Source: Botryllus schlosseri (lineage: Eukaryota). From it: a stretch of DNA of 64,000 nucleotides. A model generated the notes under the pieces. That model made no database searches. It was not told the origin of the DNA and saw only the letters and a program-made list of their open reading frames with translations. The stretch spans positions 23,252,001 to 23,316,000 of the forward strand of contig CM119371.1 in assembly GCA_051294905.1 (NCBI GenBank), read 5' to 3'. A program made the translations under genes and the position numbers. Shown here in pieces: positions 12,896 to 36,471 of this stretch. Position 1 is the first letter of the stretch, and each line of letters begins with the position of its first letter.

Positions 12896-13837
12896 TTATA
12901 CCCTGCCAACGTCGCTCATGAATATCGCAACGCCCAGTTGGCTCAGGCCCATGATATTCGACAGCAGAACTGTTAAGTTGTTCGGAAAATAGCTCAAGAT
13001 CTTTTCCGACGTCGCATTGTAGCTAAACAGACAAAACAAAAACATTTCAAACAAATGCTCAAATACAAAGTAAGCCATCTTCGCAATGGCAGGGCGCGTG
13101 CGATCGAACGGTAAAACAGGAGTGAACATATCGTACAAAGCGACAAACACGGTGGAGGTAGCCTTCTGAAGCCAATCGGCCACAGAATTTCCTCTATCGC
13201 GTACGTTAAACGACAATAGTATTATAATGTGAAGAAACCATTGTGTCAGAATAAATGCGACAGTATACCACCCGATTATAAACGACAATCTCGAGTAGAA
13301 ACCCATTTTAGCTGCAAATATGCCCGCCCGACAAAAGCACGCAACAAGTCTGTCCGTGACCGACACCTTCAACTTTTGTTGTTTTGTGTAAGCTTCGTAA
13401 GGCAAGTGAAGTCCGATTACTATCGAGATGAAAAATACAGACAACCACAAATAAAATGTTAATGCGCCCTCCTTCTCCGCGCCAATGCGTCGCGTTTGGT
13501 AATATAAGTGGATCCACATCTGTGGAATTGAGTGGCACGTTGTCTGCATTGATTTCTGACTTAGCAAGACATGACCTACTCCGTCTCTGCGTTCGTCGGC
13601 TGTAATACTCCCGCTACACCTCAGCTTAATCGGATAGATGACCACTAACAGCGCAGCGAACCAACCGTAAAGCATGGTTATTACGGCAATCGTAGCATCC
13701 CAATTCGGTTGTGTCCGGTCAATACGCCGGCAGAAAGACACGGTGGTGTATCCCGACACTCCAGACTCTAACACCATGAACACGATGATGATAAAATGGA
13801 AAACGCTACAGCAAGACGGAAGGCATGTGCTCCTCAT
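12896..13837 (-). CDS. XK-related-like multi-pass membrane protein, paralogue C (313 aa, most divergent intact copy)
   Basis: Intact ORF with family motifs QTTCHSIPQMWIHLY, IVIGLHLPY, CRAGIFAAKM, GWYTVAFILTQW, FTPVLPFD and multiple hydrophobic segments. Confidence 0.85.
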   Translation of the reverse strand: MRSTCLPSCCSVFHFIIIVFMVLESGVSGYTTVSFCRRIDRTQPNWDATIAVITMLYGWFAALLVVIYPIKLRCSGSITADERRDGVGHVLLSQKSMQTTCHSIPQMWIHLYYQTRRIGAEKEGALTFYLWLSVFFISIVIGLHLPYEAYTKQQKLKVSVTDRLVACFCRAGIFAAKMGFYSRLSFIIGWYTVAFILTQWFLHIIILLSFNVRDRGNSVADWLQKATSTVFVALYDMFTPVLPFDRTRPAIAKMAYFVFEHLFEMFLFCLFSYNATSEKILSYFPNNLTVLLSNIMGLSQLGVAIFMSDVGRV

Positions 13838-15099
13838 TTCTCTTCAATTTCATATATCTGAAAATAATGTTGTAACAATACGACTGATTTCATAACAAAA
13901 CGAACGTTAGTTTTTTAAAATGACATTTTTGCGAATAGAGACCTAATGCAGTCTAAGAAGCAAATAATTAGTGAAATATAGCTGCATTCAAGGACTCGTG
14001 TTTTGGAATTAAGGTAAAAACCCATTCGTGCACTTTAGGATTTCCCTTGCTCTGCCAGAACACTACGACATCACGCTAAATGCAACTGGATATACGATGG
14101 GTTGTATCGGAAAGGATATACCTAATGTATAAGAAAGAACTAAGAATTGCAGAGAATGGATGTAGACAATAAATTCACAAACTTATATCCTGATAACGAC
14201 CGTTTTATGTAAACTCATTTATTGAATTCACGAGAACGCCATCAGCAACATAGTTGATTTGAGCACGCCATGATTAAGATGTTTTCAAACAACGCTTGGC
14301 ACGTTCGTATCAATAATCTAAATATAGTTGCTGATTCACTAAACTCAACCATGTAACCGCTGAAATACCGCAATACAAAGAATCCTGCAATTACTTAATC
14401 GTTCAAGCCTTCAGTTGCACTCTTTCCTCGGTCATTTGCGACGGAGTAGCAGATGGTGAAACGCGTGTGCAATCATTGTAATGATAAGTCGTAAGGATTT
14501 GGCAAAAGTATTCGTACTCAATGAGATGGCTGATATAGTTTCTTATGCGTCGAGGATCAAAACACGTCAACAACGCATGTGGAAGTTTCGCGATCGTCAC
14601 GCACGAAATAATGTGGAAATCTGACTTGAAAGTTACAAGAAACGCCAGCTGACTATTAATGGTATGGTCCAGACAGCATGTTCCACTGAAGCAAAAACGT
14701 CTTCAGACCGTTCCCATTTAACCTATATTATTTATCAACTTATATTCGTCAACAGCTCGTGTTAATGTCAGAAAAAGTGTACATTTGCGACCACACACAA
14801 TGACACATAGGGACAATGATGTGGTGATTATGTCAGTCAGAATCACAATCGACGACATCACTCCACAGTGTAAAAGAACAAATATTCGGGCAGTCAATTT
14901 GATGGAAACAATAGAAATATATACTTGAAGAAACTGGAATAGCTGAAGAACTCTTATACCAAGTAATGACCATGCAATACAATATTATCGGCAGGTCGTT
15001 TCGCATGGTTATCGGGACAACAGACTTGGCACCGAGACATACCTCTCCAAGTAGGCACTATTACCAGAGTGTTGGGCGTCTTGCAGGTAGCATTGGAAC

Positions 15100-17955: not shown

Positions 17956-18693
17956 CTTCCAGCTACCTCAAAAGCATTGCACATATACTTCTACAGATCG
18001 TATATCGGATATTTTAGCATTGATAGACGCTAATTGGCGAATACTGTACATTGAAATAAACTGAGAATGTATATCATTACTGCAACGTACTAGGCCTATT
18101 ACGTCGTCGTGCGATTGCTCTTCATACATTCGAGCGCATAATACACAATTTTGCGGGGGATTATACGCCGAGTAATATTGGATTTATTGTAATTCATACA
18201 TGACTATGAGCCTTTATTTTGATGTTAGTAAAACGGTGTAAAATTTACTCTTCACTGAGACGATATACAGAGGTCTATCACCAGATGAAATCAGATATAT
18301 ACATGTCTGACGGGTATTCATCCATGCGTCTGACGCTAGTCTGCAACAATTCTCATTTCCGGTTTTCAGAAGCGGGCTTGTTCGGCTTTAGACATAACTA
18401 ATATCCCTCATTTTAGCATACTATAGTTATTCTCAGAAATAAACAGCAACTGTCGTTTGTGGCATTTTAGAAGTCAATCAGAGCCGCGAGAAAGCTGCCT
18501 TAGAGCCGCATGCGGCCCTGAGAGCGTTGGTTAGGAATCGCTGATCTGGAATTGTGCAGATACATTGATTATTTCTGGTTCGTGTCGATTTATCATCCAA
18601 CGCTGGTGTGCACCTTGACAGAGCCCCATCTATATTGCTTTTATTGTTGACTATCTCGAAAACCCGTCTGTGAAGACAACTCAATCGGTCGCC

Positions 18694-19671
18694 ATGATGT
18701 TCGCAAGGATATGCTCCGCAATATGTGGCTACTGCTGGAATCAAATAGACTATGAAGCGATCGACGTCTTGATGCTAATGAACTGTGTGACATCAGCGTA
18801 TACGACTATAGTATACTTGAGTGACGCTAACTTTTCGGAGGGAGTTTGGATTCCACTCCTCACTACGCTAAGTCTGCTGTTCGGTTATGCTGTGACTGCG
18901 TGGGTGTCGTTGTATTCTTTTGCGGCGCGGTATTGCACGGAAGATGTCGCACAGTGGAGGGAGGAGGTAGCCGGAAATTATGTGGCCGCGAAACTGCTGC
19001 AAACTGTTTTTCAGTCAATTCCCCAACTTTGCCTTCATCTGTATACACGGATACCTTATGCCGAGCAGGTGGACGTAGACAAAGCTGAATTTTATTTACC
19101 TATTCTAATATTCAGCATGTCAATAATGGCAGGGTTGCATCTGCCGCATGCAGTTTACCTGGAATACAGGGACATCCCTAGTTCATTTCGAGAATTTTTC
19201 TTCACTTTTTCGAGCCGGGCTGCATTGTTCGCTGCAAAAATGACGTTCTTAATGCAAGTAACGTATGCTATGGGATGGTGGACTTTTGCTTTTATAGCGG
19301 GGCATTGGTTCGTGCGTTTGGTGACACTTTTGTGCTATAAAGAAAACGACAGTCGTGACTCCTTCGCGCGTTGGTTTCAAAAGTGTTCAAGCATCAGACT
19401 GTTAGCCTGGTACTATATTTTCACCCCGTTGTTGCCGTACGACGGCACTGAATCTTCCATTTTCAAGGTGTGCTATTTCGCGGTAGATCAGCTCCTGCAA
19501 GCCTTCCTCTCGAGCATATTTTGTGACGACGCGTATTTCGAATATATTCCCGAATGTTTTATCGGCAATGAGAAAATACAACTGATGAATTTTGTCGGTA
19601 TTAGTCATTTGCTGGTGGCGGTTTCTATCCACGGAGTACGATATCGACGTACTCGGTACTTTACCGCGTGA
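18694..19671 (+). CDS. XK-related-like multi-pass membrane protein, paralogue D (325 aa)
   Basis: Start taken at ATG 18694 (MMFARIC) by comparison with the 35494 copy. LQTVFQSIPQLCLHLY resembles the Xkr ExFLESAPQLxLQL motif, FIAGHW resembles FIVLHW, and YYIF resembles IYIF. Confidence 0.9.
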   Translation: MMFARICSAICGYCWNQIDYEAIDVLMLMNCVTSAYTTIVYLSDANFSEGVWIPLLTTLSLLFGYAVTAWVSLYSFAARYCTEDVAQWREEVAGNYVAAKLLQTVFQSIPQLCLHLYTRIPYAEQVDVDKAEFYLPILIFSMSIMAGLHLPHAVYLEYRDIPSSFREFFFTFSSRAALFAAKMTFLMQVTYAMGWWTFAFIAGHWFVRLVTLLCYKENDSRDSFARWFQKCSSIRLLAWYYIFTPLLPYDGTESSIFKVCYFAVDQLLQAFLSSIFCDDAYFEYIPECFIGNEKIQLMNFVGISHLLVAVSIHGVRYRRTRYFTA

Positions 19672-19677
19672 TCATAC

Positions 19678-20638
19678 CAGTGTTGGGATCAAGTCACTAC
19701 CTTCGAGTCACGAGTCATCTCGAGTCATTGCACATTTTGACTCGAGTCAAGTCAAGTCAATCGATTTTCAAAGGTGACTCGACTCAAGTCAAGTCACTCG
19801 ATTTTTGGAGGTGACTCGAGTCAAGTCGAGTCAAGTCAAGTCAAGTCACGAGTCAAGTCACGATTCAAGACAAAGTGAGCTTTCGAAGTATGAGTGATGA
19901 CGCAAAGTCATTACATTTTGCTAACTGGGTGATTGACAAATTAATTTATCTTGAATCAAATAACGAATAGAAAGTTAAATATACATGCAAAAAGGTGTTG
20001 CGTCGCTCACACACACGTAGAACTGCTAATAAAATACGCGAGTAACTGTATATCTACATTCTTCATGCTACAGTCTGATTTTATTAGCCAATATAGAGTA
20101 TCGAATATGAAGCCTCGATAAGTTGAACAAATTGATGTGCTACAATAGGCACTACCCCTCTACACATATACGGGCATAAACTATATTCGTTCGATTTAAA
20201 TCATATAAAAGTGTTGGCAAAGGTGAGCACTGCGCAATGTAAGCACTGAGCCGTCTAAGAAACATCGATACTACTGCTACTACATCGTAAGCAGTGATCG
20301 CGTCGTTAGCGGTCAATTTATCTGTGATGTAACAATCGAGGATCAGTGAAACGTACAATCAGTGAATGACTGATTGCTCTCATAGGTTACACCGACGTAT
20401 CGCGGACAACTCGAACATACATAAGATAAGGGTGATTCAATCGACACCGTTTACTTAATGACTTGAAATTGACTCGTTAATTTTGCTCCGAGTTACGAGT
20501 CAATCCACATTTCTGAAGCGCCGAGTCAAGTCAAGTCAAGTCATTTTTGCAAAGTGACTCGAGTCAAGTCAAGTCATACGAAAAAGGTGACTCGAGTCTG
20601 ACTCGAGTCAAGTCATGACTCGAGTCATCCCAACACTG
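19678..20638. mobile_element. hAT MITE with (GAGTC/AAGTC)n subterminal arrays, inserted at the stop codon of paralogue D
   Basis: TIRs CAGTGTTGGGAT / ATCCCAACACTG, perfect TSD GATCATAC (19670-19677, 20639-20646). The empty site is visible in paralogue F. Confidence 0.92.
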
Positions 20639-20972
20639 GATCATACCATGTCTTCGCTTTTGCAAAATCATATAAATGTCCGTCTATCTGTGGTAATTTT
20701 TCGCTATTATTCGTGCAAGGCTATAAAATAAAACGAATTTACATGAATCGTCAAACATCGCTACATGATGGATCAGCTCTACAAGACACGTCCGATGGCA
20801 TACTATAATATACATATGTAATACGCATATACATTCTGCCGCAGGAATCCAATGCGGTCTATGATTTGATGTGAATTATTTTATATAATATAAGTGTTGC
20901 TCAACCTGAAAAATTGAACACGAAACGTGAGCCAAAAATGGAACGCCTATGAGTGTTGCGAAGTGTTTAAAT

Positions 20973-22306
20973 CAGTGGTTCTTAACCTTTTTTCCTCCAG
21001 CGCCCCCTTACGAAAATTATCGTGCTCTCCCACCTCATATTGCAAGGACTGTAATAAAGATCACGGGTAAGAGGGAGTGCCGTAACAGCACCTCGTCAGC
21101 CCCCTAAAAACGATTGCCTCGCAAACCCATAGCTTGATAAACCAAACTTCTGAGGGCTTAGCCGTCGCGTGATTTCGTTGGTCATCATAATTTGGGGCAA
21201 CTGGTGGCCCTAGGCGGTAAAATTTTCTATAACGCATGCATGTCTAGGTGGTAATTGCATATATATGTCGCTATAAACTTTTTATCCTCTCAGTCCATGT
21301 AATCAGATTTACCAGTAGCGCTGAATGAGATGTATTGGAAAATGAATGCCACGTAATTATTAATTAAACATATACAACTATGTAATGTATAGTTGTACAA
21401 CATGTACAACTATTTTATTACATGTTGTCATTTTGTTACCTCTTGTCCGCTGTACAGTCAAAGATATTGAAACGCATAAACGTAATAAACTAAAGTAAGG
21501 ACACGATTCAAAATTGCTATACTTCTTCACACTGGCAAATAATTTTCTCTGGTAGATGTTATTTGTCTTGTGAGGTGGAGATTGTGACGACATGATAATT
21601 AGGCACGAGTGATTTAGGCCCCTATGGAGATTGGACAATTAGACTTATATGCATCGAATTTTACGATCAGCATAAGGGCAATCCTCTTCGGCTAAGGTTT
21701 TCTTGCTGACGATCTTTTTGACACATTTCTCGGAGTCCCATATTGACCTGAGTTTCATATGTATCTGTACATCGTGGCGTGGTAATGGCCGACACAGAAA
21801 GGCCTATTTCTATTTTCTATAATTATAAGTATTCTTCCGAGGAGAGTCGTCAAAACATGATGTGTAGTTTATATTCATTCAACGAAATAATTTGGGGCAC
21901 TCTTCGAGCTCACCGATTGCGGATTTGGGTTGCAGCAGTTCAGTCCTGGTAAAACATTTTTGTTGAAAATAACCCTAGCAAGCGTGACGGTATGTGTTTT
22001 AACGGGAGAATGGTGATCGAAAGTACGCGCAATTCGTTTTACATGAATTATAATAACCCATTACATTTATCAAAACACATGTAGAAAACATCGTCACGTA
22101 GCGCGACCAAAAAATTCGGGATTTGACATGTTTTGTGCAATGTTAATTTGCTCTGGATACTCATTAAAGATTGTCCTACTACCATATCATCTACTGCGAA
22201 GCCATTTTTGTTCAGCGCCCCCCATATCGCCCCTTGAGCGTTTCCACCTCCTTCGAAGTCGCCAGAGCCGCTTGGGGGGCGTTGGAGGCAAGGTTAAGAA
22301 CCACTG
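20973..22306. mobile_element. hAT (Buster-like) composite MITE
   Basis: TIR CAGTGGTTCTTAACC and perfect TSD GTTTAAAT. Sister of 56968..58926. Confidence 0.9.
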
Positions 22307-22491
22307 GTTTAAATTAAAAGTGTAGACCTAACAAACGTTCAGCCTGAAAGTGGCTGGTTGACTAGACACCAGAACGCAGGGCTCATAATAAAATCACATT
22401 TTATTGATTCATTATTAAATGACAGTTGAACAGCTTCTTTGAGGTACAGAACTTCAATATACAATTGAATAGTATATTCATATTGAAATGA

Positions 22492-22525
22492 ACCCGAATA
22501 TTTTCGGCTGACACTCGTCAGGGGT
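22492..22525 (-). ncRNA. Minimal type I hammerhead ribozyme motif, inverted copy
   Basis: Exact reverse complement of 22600..22633. Confidence 0.75.
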
Positions 22526-22599
22526 AATCGTCAGCAACTAGTAGAGAATTCGAAAAATATACGCTGTTCTTTCGAATTCTCTACTAGTTGCTGACGATT

Positions 22600-22633
22600 A
22601 CCCCTGACGAGTGTCAGCCGAAAATATTCGGGT
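22600..22633 (+). ncRNA. Minimal type I hammerhead ribozyme motif (Penelope/retrozyme type)
   Basis: Reads ACCC-CTGACGA-GTGTCAGCC-GAA-AATATT-C-GGGT: stem I ACCC/GGGT, core CUGACGA, short stem II closed by G-C, GAAA, palindromic stem III AATATT, UUC cleavage triplet. Confidence 0.75.
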
Positions 22634-23307
22634 TCATTTCAATATGAATATACTATTCAATTAAATGACAGTTATAATACCCAACCTGGGTGAATAAATA
22701 TGTGCAAAAATTCGAATGTCCACTAGCTGCTGTGACAGGGTTTCATTAATTCGAATCAGCAGTTGAAACCGTTTCCGGGTTGGTCAATGAAATTACGAAC
22801 ATCACAAATAGTTCAGAGCAAACAAACTGCAAATATCATGCAACTCACTCAATCATGGGAATGAAAACGAATGCATTGGGATAGTGATAACAAAATATCA
22901 TTTGGTATCCTAAACTTTCGTGACAGGGGCATCGATTCATTGGCTACGTTCATTAGCGGAAAATATGACCAACACAAATCATTGCATCTTATTGAATACT
23001 GACCAAACTATGGTTTGTAAATTCAATATTAACCTACAAAGCAGTATATATCTGTATCACTACCGTGAAAACCAGCCATAAGTATTTGTTGACTCTTAAT
23101 GAAATTGGGCCTGCTAACCAGGCATCAAAAATATTCTAGTGCTTGCATTACAAGTAATTATATCAGGTTAATGCCAATCACTTTTAGGTTAAAAAACTAA
23201 GAAATTGTTTCTACGAGTGCATACAAATTTTGCAGACTTGAATAAAAGATTTTGTTGTCCTGTCCAGTCTGTTGCAAAAAAATAATCAAATCTGGAAGTG
23301 ATTAAGG

Positions 23308-23600
23308 CAGTGTTGTTCTCAAACTTTTTGTACAGGCCCCTTTTATTATAGAAAAAAATTCCACACACTCCTCATCTTCATATCATAAAATAAAAACCAG
23401 AACGCTGGAAATCCCAACGGATAGTTTGATGGCATTGAAGGTAATGTTGATGAGAGAATATTCAAATATGAAATTCTCACTATACACAGAGAAATACGAA
23501 TGAGCTGGAGGTAAATCTCGCGGAGCGCAAACAAATTTTAGTTGACTGAGCCATCGCATCTCCTTCAAATGCTTTCACGCATCCTGTTTGAGAACCACTT
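23308..23600. mobile_element. ~300-bp hAT MITE
   Basis: CAGTGTTGTTCTCAAAC ... GTTTGAGAACCACT ends. Homologous to ~2470-2767, 37554-37796, 38620-38803 and 40256-40554. Confidence 0.7.
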
Positions 23601-24123
23601 CTTTAGGGTATGACAAATCGAATGCATAGCAGCTCAAAATGTCAACAATCTCTCTGAATACTTCATCTTCACTGAATAAGTTCATATTCTTGCCATCAGC
23701 TGCAACCCAGGCTTGATGAATCTCTGATTCCTGGCGTGGCATGGTGTCTCCATCTTTTTATTAGTCGACTTCAAGTGGTGCTCCTTGAAAATTGAACATG
23801 CCAAGGAAGTTTCCAAATTTAATGCATAAATATAGATATTACAGACAGGTATATTACAGGAGCACAGGAGAGGCGCTAGGCTACATGTGAAATCCTATCA
23901 ATCACTGACTGAGTAAGACTGGAATTAGCAATACGACTAATAAAAATATCTTTTATCTAAATTTGTATGGCCCACAAAACAGAAACAATACCTGATTCAA
24001 TGATAAGACATGCACTCGGGTCTTGGATTGTATCCGTTTGTCTCTCAATTAGGCTTGCAAAAGAAGACAGTTGCCTTCATTAACCTCATTTTGCTGAATA
24101 TAAAATTGATCACAAACAAGATC

Positions 24124-24315
24124 AGACGTTCCCTCTAATGTTTCAGGAGTTTGCCCGCACTCACCAACTCACTGCACGGTCCCTTGGACTACAGTACGCA
24201 ACGACTAAAAAAGGTCATCACTTCTGATTTGTTGTGCGCAGCTTAGATTTTCTGTGCGCAGAGACCGTGTCCGCACTGCACAATTGCGCACATGCGCAGC
24301 TTAGATGGAACATCG
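24124..24315. mobile_element. Short hAT MITE of the 15100/16465 family
   Basis: GTTCCCTCTAA ... TTAGATGGAACATCG ends and the same TGCGCA repeats. Confidence 0.7.
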
Positions 24316-25985
24316 GCGATAATAGTAATTCCTATGGGTTCACATTCCCATTATGATAATTGACATAGGCTTCACCTATGACTCTCATTCTAAGATTCTA
24401 AGATGCTGCTTTGAATTTAGGCGAGAAAACATATCAGACATAGGACACGTCGATTATCTTTAGTACGAAAACCTTGTGACATCTTATCGAAGGTGCCGTT
24501 TCCTTCATTGCAGTAATTGTAACTGATGTCAATCTTTCGAAATACTTCTTTCGTGATTAAATTTAATTACCCCAATCAATTGGAATTAGCAGGTTATGGG
24601 AAAAGCTCCCAATCTGACCTTTATCTAGTCCGTTATAGTTCAGTAAGCAATAGTTTAAATACAAGTTACACGAGCTCAATACGTTCAACTACACCTCTGT
24701 TCCATGTACGTACACAGATGAAGCCTTTTTCAGCTAATGGCGCATAGCTCGTAGGCTACTAGATAGTATCGCAAAAAATACAGTATATTACAAACAATGG
24801 TGATATATTAAATTATTAAATAAGCTTACATATTCACATGTTTTCATGGGTTCTTGAGACAAACGAATGTATCGCATAAGATGACTACACCAGTACAAAA
24901 TTCGTTACGAATGACTCCTCACGCCACTGTAAACATTGACTGATAGCGCAGGCACGGTAGAACCAGGGGGCTCCTTTCAAAGAGTCGACGTCAGTTGAAC
25001 GAATATGAGGATCAATCAAGACTGTTGAAAAAAAAAGTTGTTTCATATATTCGCAATACAGGTGAAATATTCAGTATTCACGCATACATCGGACTGGATA
25101 CAATTGTGGGTAGCAGAAAGGTGTCTTTCATACAATATTATGAAATGGAAAGTTGCACGCGGCTTTACCGCCAATTTCACTCCAGCAGAAGTGCAGTGGT
25201 GCCTACATTTATAATTACTATAGGGCGATTACTTTTACCTAAAAAACTTAATTTTGTCCAAATTTGACCTAACGTATGCAAATTATGCGATTTCCCACAT
25301 AGTGTTCGAAATTGACCACTTATCTTCATTGCTGGCGGGAACTGTTTGTCCTTGCGAATTAGTTCTCTCGTGGCTCTTTCGTCAATTGTATAAAATCTGC
25401 ATGGCAAAATGCTCAGGGACAATGTTGAGTGAGTTCTAATGAACGGAAGTGTGGGGGGTGGGTGACTTTCTCTGAAAATGGGAGATTTCAAATCGAAATC
25501 AGACAAGCGCAATACATTTGTGAAAGGTACTAGTTTCATACTTGAGGATTCTGCAATACAAAAAAATTGGAAAATTTTGCGGGTCCAGTAGTACCTTAGG
25601 ACCCTCCGATTATTTCTGTGCACTAAATTGCGTTACTACCGGACCAACTAGGAATAATTCTGGGAATTACTTCAGCGTAATTCCTTGGATTTCACTGATT
25701 GTTTATGTGTCCGACGTCGCGTCGCGTCACAGTGTTGCAGTATTACGGCAGAACCATCACAGTGTGTGTGCAAGACAGTTTATGTGTTTGTTTTAGACGA
25801 CCATAGAAACGCCCGTATATCGAAAGTAGAGTTCTTGCTGGTAATACCTGCTGTAGGCTCATATCATATTAACTGAATTTACGAATATCTTAGTATACAA
25901 ATATGTTTTATGTGGTGGTTTATCGTTACTTATTTACTTTCAATGCTCTCGCTTAAATTCGCAGTAATAACCCATTTCCTTCCTA

Positions 25986-26906
25986 ATGGAGCATTATTGT
26001 GCGCTCAATGTTCTGATGGTGGTCAACGCTGTAACTGCGGTGGCTACCGCTGCTATTTACTGGGACAACAATGACTTCTCAGAGAGGATTGTGATTCCAC
26101 TTTTTATATTGCTCAGTGCGGCTTTCGGGACCATTGTGACTTTGTGCATGTCATTTTATTCGGCGGATGCATGGGGAATCACAGACGATGTCAGACAGTG
26201 GAAAGGTAGGACCAGGGATTATTACGTCGTTGCAAGTCTGCTTCAAGCACTTTTTCAGTCCATTCCTCACCATATTCATACACGAATACCCCAATCCGAA
26301 GAAGAAGAGGTAGACGAATTCGACTTTTACGTACCCATTGCAATATACTTTACGTCAACAATAGTCGGCTTCCATATGCCACACGTGGCGTACTTGGAAC
26401 ACAGCGGCATCCAATGGTCGTTTCGAGAATTTTTCTTTTCATTTGCGAGTAGATCGGGCTTATTTGCTGCAAAATTGGCCTTCCTCATGCAAATGACGTA
26501 TGTTGCTGGATACTGGACTTTTACATTCATTGTTGTGAACTGGATTCTGCGATGGGCAACAATTGTCTGCTGTCATGAAAGCGATAATCGCCAGTCCTTC
26601 GTTCCGTGGTTTAGAAAGATGACAAGCGATAAAATGATTGCCTTGTACTACATCTTCACCCCTCTATTACCCCACGATGGCAGCAAATCTTCCACCTTAA
26701 ATGTGATTTTTTATGTGATAGATCAACTCTTGCAGTCATTCGTTTCTTTCACGCTGTGGGACGAAGCGTACTTGGAACATATCCCTCTGTTTTTTATCAA
26801 CAATGAAAAAATTCAGCTGCTCAATTTCGTTGGTATTAGTCTATTGTTGGTATCAGTATCCATTTACAGAATACAGTGTCGTGGATATCGTTATGTTATC
26901 GCTTAA
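25986..26906 (+). CDS. XK-related-like multi-pass membrane protein, paralogue E (306 aa)
   Basis: Intact ORF, closest to paralogue A. Carries a 3-aa in-frame deletion in the SIPHLWLH motif. Confidence 0.88.
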   Translation: MEHYCALNVLMVVNAVTAVATAAIYWDNNDFSERIVIPLFILLSAAFGTIVTLCMSFYSADAWGITDDVRQWKGRTRDYYVVASLLQALFQSIPHHIHTRIPQSEEEEVDEFDFYVPIAIYFTSTIVGFHMPHVAYLEHSGIQWSFREFFFSFASRSGLFAAKLAFLMQMTYVAGYWTFTFIVVNWILRWATIVCCHESDNRQSFVPWFRKMTSDKMIALYYIFTPLLPHDGSKSSTLNVIFYVIDQLLQSFVSFTLWDEAYLEHIPLFFINNEKIQLLNFVGISLLLVSVSIYRIQCRGYRYVIA

Positions 26907-29958: not shown

Positions 29959-30444
29959 CAGTGTTAGGATCAAGTCACTGCATTCGAGTCACGAGTCACT
30001 CGAGTCATTGTAAATTTTGACTGGAGTCAAGTCAAATCAATCGATATTCAAAGGTGACTCGAGTCAAGTCAAGTCACTAGATTTTTGAAGGTGACTCAAG
30101 TCAAGTCAAGTCACGAGTCAGTTTGCATTTCAAGTCAAGTTGGCTTTTCGAACTATGAGACATGATTAGGTCATTGCAATTTGCTAACTGTCTGAAATAC
30201 AGATTTAGTGGCCATTGATTTCTAATCGATGAACGAATATAGAGTTAAATATACACGCAAGAAGGCGCTGCATCGCTCAAATATACGTAGACCTGTTAAA
30301 CTGCGTAATTGCATAGCCTTAGTTTATAGTTACCAACCAAAATCGAGAATAGAGAAACAAATTGATAAGATGTAATACATTACCCATTTACAAATAGATA
30401 TGATACAATTGGAGCCTGCGTCAATGGTTGAGGACTATATAAAC
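29959..30444. mobile_element. Left part of a second GAGTCAAGTCA-family element, interrupted at 30445 by another hAT end (CAGGGGTGGGCAA)
   Basis: Starts CAGTGTTAGGATCAAGTCAC and is collinear with 19678 onwards. Confidence 0.75.
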
Positions 30445-34626: not shown

Positions 34627-35493
34627 ATATAGTAGATTTGTGGTTCGTCACAAGTGACGTACAGAACGTAGTTTTACCGTACAGTATTCGAACGCGTTAT
34701 GCACATTTCAGCCAATGTACCGCACTTATTACTATTTCCCAATTCTAAAGTTGGATTTGTATTGTTGCTATGTTTTACACCTATAGAAAATCAAATCGTT
34801 TTTTGAATTGCCTTTTCACTCGCATATTTTCATGCATGTCGACATAGTTAGTGGTCCAGTCACTCTAATTCAAATAAGACGAGAAATTATTAGTTTATCG
34901 CACATTCAGATATGTTATACTCAACATCCGATCCCCAATGCCATTACGGTCAATTATGTTTTGAACGTGCATTTCAAACCGAGATTGCGTTTTCAGCACT
35001 GTAGGCTAGGTTTCATTGATATACCTATAATTTTGTGTTTAATTTCCGCATTCCTGGCGATTTAATATCCGTGAATGAAAGTTTGGGGGCAACATGAAAC
35101 AGTATAAATTCCGCGTATTTCGCATTGACATAAAACAAAATTGTTGGTAAGGTTGTGGGTGACAAACGGAAAACTTCATCACTCCATCATCCAACGGGTC
35201 ATTTTAAAGAATTGAATTTACCAATAATAATAATAACATCCACCGTCACAGTATACAATGAAGCTCCATAGCTCGCGAAATAAAAAAAATGTATCATCAT
35301 GTTATGTTGCCTGAAAACTGTATTCTCTCAAATTTATGGATATTGTGCAGATAAAATTGATAACTTCTAGTTCGTTTCAATTCATCTTACAACGCAGCTG
35401 TGCACTTTGACAGAACCCCATATATATAGCTTTTAATTTTGAATATTTACTATAATCTCAGACCCGTTCGTAAAGACAGCTCAATCGATCGGC

Positions 35494-36471
35494 ATGATGT
35501 TCGCGAGGATATGCTCCACAATCTGTGGTTACTGCTGGAATCGAATGGACTATAGAGCGATCAACGTCTTGATGCTGATGAACGCTGTGACATCAGCGTA
35601 TACGACTCTAGTCTACTGGCAGGACGCTAACTTGTCGGAGGGATCTTTGATTCCTCTTCTCACTATGCTTAGCATGCTATTCGGTTATGTTGTGACTATG
35701 TGGCTGTCACTGTATTCTTTTGCGGTGCGGTATTGCACGAAAGATGTCGCGCATTGGAGGGAGGAGGTAGCCGAAAATTATATGGTCGCAAAACTGCTGC
35801 AAACTATTTTTCAGTCAATTCCCCAACTTTGTCTTCATCTGTATATACAAATACCCAATACCGAGCAGGTTGACGTACACAAATTTGAATTTTACCTACC
35901 TATTCTAGTATTCAGCATGTCAATAATGATCGGGTTGCATCTGCCGCATGTAGTATACCTAAAGTACAGAGACATCCCTAGTTCATTCCGAGAATTTTTC
36001 TTCTCCTGCTCGTGCAGGGCGGCGTTGTTCGCTGCGAAAATGGCGTTCCTAATGCAAGTAACGTATGTTATGGGATGCTGGACTTTTGCCTTTATAGCGG
36101 GACATTGGTTTGTGCGTTTGCTGACACTTGTCTGTTATAAAGAAAACGATAGTCGCGACTCCTTCGCGCGGTGGTTTCAAAATTGTTCAAGCATCAGACT
36201 GTTAGCCTGGTACTATATTTTTACTCCGTTGTTGCCGTACGATGGTACTGCATCTTCCATTTTCAAGGTGTGCTATTTCGCGGTAGATCAGCTCCTGCAA
36301 GCCTTCCTCTCGGTCATATTATGGGATGACGCGTATTTCGAATATATTCCCGAATGCTTTATCGGCAATGAGAAAATTCAGCTGCTTAATTTCGTCGGTA
36401 TTACTCATTTGTTGGTGGCAGTTTCTATCCACGGAGTACGATGTCGTCGTGCTCGGTACTTTACAGCGTGA
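35494..36471 (+). CDS. XK-related-like multi-pass membrane protein, paralogue F (325 aa), recent duplicate of D
   Basis: Intact ORF, gap-free collinear with 18694..19671. Upstream ~170 bp and 3' UTR are also homologous. AATAAA near 36560. Confidence 0.9.
   Translation: MMFARICSTICGYCWNRMDYRAINVLMLMNAVTSAYTTLVYWQDANLSEGSLIPLLTMLSMLFGYVVTMWLSLYSFAVRYCTKDVAHWREEVAENYMVAKLLQTIFQSIPQLCLHLYIQIPNTEQVDVHKFEFYLPILVFSMSIMIGLHLPHVVYLKYRDIPSSFREFFFSCSCRAALFAAKMAFLMQVTYVMGCWTFAFIAGHWFVRLLTLVCYKENDSRDSFARWFQNCSSIRLLAWYYIFTPLLPYDGTASSIFKVCYFAVDQLLQAFLSVILWDDAYFEYIPECFIGNEKIQLLNFVGITHLLVAVSIHGVRCRRARYFTA

Follow-up and report, generated by a model that had tools for sequence, protein, structure and literature searches.

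Inverted insertions of a Penelope-like element in Botryllus schlosseri follow a strict one-long-end, one-short-end rule, suggesting that copying of one RNA is likely primed from each end of the cut DNA

How does a perfect palindrome with a ribozyme motif in each arm come to lie inside an older repeat? We addressed this question for an insert in a 64,000-nucleotide stretch of the Botryllus schlosseri genome (contig CM119371.1; hereafter the window), whose two inverted arms (22463-22555 and 22570-22662; 93 nt each, 14 nt apart) are 100% complementary and which is flanked by an exact 14-bp direct repeat (22414-22427 and 22660-22673). An earlier note on this DNA had reported the arms, the direct repeat, a hammerhead core and two cut positions, all of which held when the sequence was rechecked. 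With the 2,683-bp unit of a Penelope-like element (PLE) as reference, the insert resolves into two unequal pieces of that element's 3′ end, joined head to head. Arm B (22428-22555, minus strand; 128 nt, unit 2556-2683) continues for 35 nt past the 93-nt palindrome into a tail (22428-22462, minus strand) that matches the unit at about nucleotides 20-54 of the ORF and is found in this arm only, and Arm A (22557-22662, plus strand; 106 nt, unit 2543-2648) ends short, without the tail. The 14-nt central 'loop' consists of one untemplated base at the junction (22556, from the unit alignment) and 13 further nucleotides of the right arm; in this pair the short-end arm extends 13 nt further 5′ than the tail arm. 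The likely PLE start codon and first codons lie at 22644-22662 on the plus strand, where the pseudo-LTR overlaps the start of the ORF.

The insertion interrupts an older dispersed repeat (window 22307-23999 at least, plus strand; 77-92% to paralogues) that is at least 1.7 kb long and has 170 candidate copies. The duplicated stretch was present once in 11 of 11 paralogues examined, which, together with the exact repeat, bears out the claim of a real insertion with a target-site duplication; the left copy (22414-22427) is 14 bp long, the family mode being 12, and its counterpart on the right (22660-22673) begins with 3 nt that also end the right arm. In run X16, two contigs lack precisely 22415-22662, but as the target is itself a repeat this does not demonstrate an empty allele. 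Around the insertion, four long ORFs (12896-13843, 18619-19671, 25971-26906 and 35443-36471) with weak XK-related Pfam matches, one of them above the cut-off, form a local gene cluster. Elsewhere in the window an exon at 53458-53919 matches eukaryotic carbonic anhydrase (E = 1e-12), and related 33-37-bp tandem repeats at 19738-19869, 20529-20627 and 30018-30114 probably represent one small repeat family.

We compared the arms with the rest of the family, which comprises two subfamilies. Both are identical to the subfamily-1 majority (0/128 differences in Arm B and 0/106 in Arm A, that is, 0 over 234 nt, with an upper bound near 1.3% divergence), whereas 24 subfamily-1 segments from an unbiased sample showed a median divergence of 3.5% with none at zero. 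The window copy lacks a variant common to six long, very young pairs. Judged by this divergence, the copy is young, its age being loosely constrained; the earlier description of it as very recent therefore stands as to youth, while the identical 93-nt arms on which it leaned date the insertion loosely.

The 30-nt ribozyme core occurs in 3,559 exact copies in the 495-Mb genome (control, 0), and identical matches to the 93-nt arm number at least 41 (40 of 556 candidates scored). Other copies extend upstream of the arm into GIY-YIG and reverse transcriptase (RT) coding sequence, and at locus L032 a 2,683-bp tandem unit holds an open frame of 857 residues with domain matches to RVT_1 (E = 1e-7) and GIY-YIG (E = 0.02, below the Pfam cut-off), the GIY-YIG motif residues being kept in 24 aligned relatives. 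The L032 protein has 1,584 relatives among 8,000 candidates (best 64% identical); none of the 120 matches listed for it is a named PLE reference element, and a structure search returned no solved PLE structure, only distant RTs. Open frames in 6 further loci belong to the second subfamily (89% amino-acid identity to the first), which gives open frames of 857-860 residues in 7 loci overall and substantiates the expectation that a Penelope-type RT exists elsewhere in the genome. The 24-protein alignment further shows a DKG motif in 22 proteins (DKS in one; ADKG counted) and two Cys and His residues around the GIY-YIG core, as in CCHH-type endonucleases. No RNase H domain match was obtained for the element RT, and a CxxC zinc-finger linker occurred in 0/24 linkers, an absence that fits the Penelope/Poseidon clade as PMC8557442 defines it. 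The family thus shows the features of canonical endonuclease-bearing (EN+) PLEs, namely one ORF in which RT precedes a C-terminal GIY-YIG domain, pseudo-LTRs that derive from partial tandems, truncation at the 5′ end, an inverted partner, a 30-40-bp tail and a target duplication.

Full-length tandem or palindromic arrays of the two subfamilies were observed at L032, L251, L108, L243, L244 and L247-L250. The subfamilies share 86% nucleotide identity and an identical hammerhead core, and the two tandem units at L243 differ at 2 of 2,692 positions. Another locus, L241 (G000:C1:37766500-37770000, 1008-2546), forms a short+tail palindrome; its arms are built from internally deleted units of 359 bp in tandem, which comprise the pseudo-LTR plus the first 154 nt, and every full unit has a hammerhead. 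The deletion junction was found in 4 copies, at L241 alone (38 candidates scored). The arrangement at L241 has the look of a retrozyme-like unit that arose in a single event, perhaps by way of circular or template-jumped RNA, and L242 holds a similar small tandem.

On this sequence comparison, the insert is almost certainly a PLE remnant, best read as a head-to-head pair of 3′ ends, each truncated on its 5′ side, from an endonuclease-bearing element that was mobile recently. The small, uncatalogued ribozyme retroelement proposed in the earlier note gives way to these two truncated ends of an autonomous 2,683-bp PLE; of the outcomes foreseen for a genome search, linkage to RT and GIY-YIG frames was found, along with the thousands of core copies, but no tandem array at the window locus. 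An inverted partner, a one-sided tail, a target duplication and a hammerhead have all been published for PLEs (PMC8557442, PMC3846280, PMC4209133, PMC6765202), and the layout is thus of an already described kind. The EN+ PLE units described in PMC8557442 and PMC3846280 share these features with ours: they are truncated at the 5′ end and form partial tandems, a truncated copy adjoins in inverted orientation, one end bears a 30-40-bp tail, the target duplication is short, and the pseudo-LTR runs over the first ORF codons. In those accounts the tail is optional, or is frequently found at one end (PMC8557442; Pen2a_Av in PMC3846280), whereas here the one-tail pairing was counted, proved strict (36/36 classifiable pairs) and is tied to shared templates and to microhomology at both ends.

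The plus-strand motif (22590-22633) contains the core CUGACGA (22604-22610) and GAAA (22620-22623), stem I (22600-22603/22630-22633), a G10.1-C11.1 pair (22611/22619) and a palindromic AAUAUU stem III (22623-22628), and its mirror image, including the pseudoknot strand, lies on the minus strand (22492-22535); cleavage is predicted after 22629 (plus) and after 22496 (minus). It thus shows the features of a minimal type I hammerhead: core, G10.1-C11.1, A15.1-U16.1, NUH site, helix I and palindromic helix III. The stem II described earlier as tiny does comprise the single G10.1-C11.1 pair, but loop II (22612-22618) additionally pairs with the 5′ flank (22590-22596) in a 7-bp pseudoknot. A loose core pattern matched 9 times in the window against 9.04 expected, with no excess over chance, and an Rfam scan of 20000-25000, with models that may miss minimal forms, returned no hammerhead family at E ≤ 10 but sub-threshold hairpin families only. 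The case for a hammerhead therefore rests on its position in the element and on covariation.

We compared the motif with related PLEs at 78 metagenome loci. A strict motif lay behind the ORF in the 3′ regions of 8/42 relatives, against 0/40 in each of two controls; the majority of the closest relatives escaped this strict pattern, since U is the first base of their core. In these relatives (the L167-L239 group and L188; 55-64% amino-acid identity), core position 3 is a U paired with G or A at position 8. Across a covariation alignment of 8 hand-picked rows, three of them from one family group, core pair 3-8 was C-G in 5, U-G in 2 and U-A in 1, and 6 of the 7 pairs in the helix between 5′ flank and loop II showed changes on both sides. 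Pairing in this pseudoknot reached 88.7% of cells, a value attained in 0/500 shuffles (lenient ones that ignore kinship, on hand-picked rows) and well above slid controls (18-42%). Shuffling the flank within each family equalled the native helix in 0.3-1.5% of cases for five rows, with the two most distant rows at 8% and 11%. Between families, helix I and the helix III palindrome vary in sequence but keep their pairing. These patterns make it very probable, at the sequence level, that the motif is a hammerhead homologue, one that appears to be under selection and to have a pseudoknotted helix II, and position and covariation together uphold the assignment to Penelope-type minimal hammerheads.

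A pseudoknot in PLE motifs was not found in the literature searched. Lunse et al., in work on dimeric PLE hammerheads, reportedly mention pseudoknots that join loop II to the flank of stem I. Contacts in which a helix links stems I and II are known for hammerheads (PMC10085705). Among the metazoan PLE pseudo-LTR hammerheads described in PMC4209133, the intact core, G10.1-C11.1, 4-bp helix I and palindromic helix III region are shared with ours, and the U3-A8 core variant and dual hammerheads 100-700 bp apart on opposite strands are reported there as well; helix II in that description is a long hairpin of 6-8 bp, whereas here it is one pair plus the 7-bp pseudoknot with the 5′ flank.

To survey insertions of the family, we started from the first 100 exact matches to the core on contig 1 and obtained 86 insertions, a sample drawn from one contig, chosen by intact core and including a few duplicated or interrupted loci (L095/L096, L118/L120, L108). 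Inverted pairs made up 45 of the 86, all with 3′ ends outward and none facing. The 44 complete pairs comprised 36 short+tail, 0 short+short, 0 tail+tail and 8 with one unclassifiable end (36/36 classifiable pairs short+tail against 0.5, P = 3e-11), and the 41 non-inverted insertions 19 short, 18 tail and 4 other ends. In a wider set of all fetched loci (68 pairs), 57 pairs were short+tail, 9 had unclassifiable ends and 2 were tail+tail, the last two being inner junctions of larger units with short+tail outer ends. Five multi-unit palindromes likewise had short+tail outer ends, with duplications of 12-14 bp. Target duplications of 11-14 bp (mode 12) were found in 34/57 pairs and none in 23/57; in 29 clean pairs they were 75% AT, and element end and duplication overlapped by 2.1 and 2.4 nt at the two ends versus 0.6 nt after shuffling. 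Such a strict pairing of one long with one short end suggests that the copying of one RNA likely starts from each end of the cut DNA. Neither the rule nor such a twin-priming reading was found in the PLE-mechanism literature searched, a search outside which key older papers lie.

The two arms of a pair also bear signs of a common template. After setting aside 3 unclassifiable pairs, 63/65 had arms of the same subfamily, and the 2/65 called mixed were both degenerate. Seven long pairs showed 0 arm differences over 403-2019 nt yet carried different variant sets from one pair to another, non-majority bases were shared 5.5 times as frequently as in random same-subfamily pairs, and the site-private deletion junction of L241 is present in both of its arms. 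The 5′ stops of the two arms lay within 30 nt of each other in 24/57 pairs (7.3 by permutation) and in 15/35 pairs of the unbiased set (4.6 expected). Arm lengths correlated weakly (Spearman 0.27 for all 57 pairs; 0.17, P = 0.33, for the 35 unbiased pairs), and the arm reaching further 5′ was the short-end arm in 21 of the 57 pairs and the tail arm in 20, with 16 within 20 nt. Junction overlaps of 1-14 nt occurred in 31/68 pairs. No remnant of a second cDNA was found beside single copies; 2/73 of them showed a match of 9-10 nt, in each case to the short end. Deletion of the centre or conversion within the palindrome after insertion could also produce near-equal 5′ stops and identical arms.

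These observations suggest that the insert was likely made by double-ended target-primed reverse transcription. The GIY-YIG endonuclease would nick the two strands of AT-rich DNA at positions roughly 12 bp from each other, and each 3′-OH would pair with approximately 2 nt of element RNA and prime RT, one strand starting at a far site (unit ~2683, the tail end) and the other at a near site (~2647). Both cDNAs would copy the same RNA, the trailing RT displacing the leading cDNA, and in the window insert both would have stopped after about 100 nt and been joined by end repair. We consider target priming of both ends probable, given the overlaps at both ends and the tight 11-14 bp duplications. 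That the two nicked strands prime at two fixed sites of a single RNA molecule has, in our view, a somewhat better than even chance: the end rule, the shared subfamily and variants, the L241 junction and the near-equal 5′ stops count for it, and the weak length correlation, mixed-subfamily calls, unclassified pairs, missing duplications and single copies free of a cDNA remnant count against it. An obligately asymmetric form, in which one RNA carries two RT subunits at a spacing of 35 nt and each subunit is primed by one nicked strand, so that every two-armed insertion gets exactly one tail, is a more tentative proposal that we place just short of an even chance.

In L1 twin priming, the second target strand primes on the element RNA and yields an inversion inside one target duplication, with the inverted parts deriving from non-overlapping portions of the RNA. 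Here, in contrast, both arms copy the same segment from two fixed sites 35 nt apart. Another parallel is the Anolis carolinensis Poseidon element PAc, which in vitro nicks and extends both strands and uses two RT start sites that bracket the tail (PMC11167929). PAc shares with our element a single RT-GIY-YIG ORF, AT-rich targets and a hammerhead next to the start codon, and two start sites bracketing the tail, extension of both strands being reported for PAc and proposed here (PMC11167929). The main PAc start site lies 111-118 nt into the ORF, compared with ends at about 18 and 54 nt here; PMC11167929 describes no strand difference in start site and initiation without homology between template and cut DNA, whereas we observed short overlaps at both ends.

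Among other explanations, an asymmetric protein dimer carrying two RNAs of a single source locus, which may pair via the stem III palindrome, would also prime from both ends and would give the short+tail rule and the microhomology at both ends. The palindrome is kept across families of differing sequence, in line with such pairing, and a protein dimer is predicted for the anole PLE (PMC11167929). With two separate RNAs it is hard to account for the surplus of near-equal 5′ stops (24/57 versus 7.3) or for the site-private L241 deletion in both arms, and two subfamilies and several variant sets have been young together, yet long arms are never mixed, so we regard this explanation as unlikely. 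Similarly doubtful is a self-priming fold-back, outlined for PLEs in PMC3846280 and PMC8557442, in which a palindromic intermediate forms and the endonuclease trims one end. It accounts for identical arms, near-equal 5′ stops and the 1-14-nt junction overlaps (31/68 pairs), but folding back of a target-primed cDNA should leave one fixed arm shorter, a polarity that the 21:20 split contradicts. Microhomology at both target ends is likewise not what trimming should produce. A free palindrome trimmed at either end, included in the same judgement, may still have been the intermediate.

The first reading of the insert, a small non-autonomous retrozyme whose two hammerheads cleave as a dimer, is highly improbable. 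Metazoan non-LTR retrozymes, which are kin to PLE pseudo-LTRs, consist of head-to-tail tandem units with the motif in each (10.64898/2026.07.22.740005), and both the type I hammerhead with its palindromic stem III and the pseudo-LTR kinship are found here; a 359-bp tandem deletion derivative does exist, once in the genome (L241). The window arms, by contrast, are plain 3′ ends of a coding element, inverted and variable in length with 5′ break points that differ from copy to copy, rather than a fixed non-coding head-to-tail unit, no tandem array is present at the locus, and the motifs lie on opposite strands, where they would be sequestered. A fold-back assembly or library artefact is least credible of all: the palindrome is perfect and no independent contig among those shown bridges a junction by 31 letters on each side, but the arms are unequal, with a one-sided tail, and end at the family's two standard sites, a family-sized duplication flanks them, and the interrupted repeat is continuous across the site in paralogues.

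We also considered what the two ribozyme motifs may do. Metazoan PLE minimal hammerheads cleave weakly and as multimers only, according to PMC4209133. RNAfold did not yield the hammerhead fold for the monomer (z about -1.0 to -1.4), co-folding of two copies gave another duplex rather than the stem III dimer, and the whole insert folds as one hairpin (-171 kcal/mol). As the two motifs occupy opposite strands, any one transcript has at most one of them in sense, which disposes of the idea that they serve as each other's dimer partners. Whichever strand is read, the antisense arm comes ahead of the motif and, with the long hairpin, would sequester it; from these fold predictions, both window motifs are likely inert. 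None of the records that contain the element was listed as RNA, a neutral outcome. In three raw RNA runs, reads pile on the pseudo-LTR on both strands and 68-98% of them continue into other sequence, mostly read-through of scattered copies, and no pile-up of read starts or ends was seen at the pseudo-LTR. Nor did arms start in excess at the predicted cut (2 arms versus a mean of 1.3 per position, in a small, biased sample of ~40 short arms). In our reading the pseudo-LTR carries the hammerhead as a conserved passenger, which is predicted to work only as a dimer, or with protein assistance, in tandem-element transcripts.

The window locus itself is a dead copy, one of thousands, and is of value because it samples a PLE family that is young and present in many copies. 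How tandem and inverted PLE structures originate is listed as unresolved in PMC8557442, and asymmetric twin-priming, if true, would account at a stroke for the tail, the inverted repeat and the 12-bp duplication. The pseudoknot of loop II, with its covariation, implies that ribozyme test constructs should include about 15 nt of 5′ flank. Together, the one-tail rule, the shared templates and the microhomology at both ends offer sharp predictions for an in vitro PLE assay, for which PMC11167929 describes a system.
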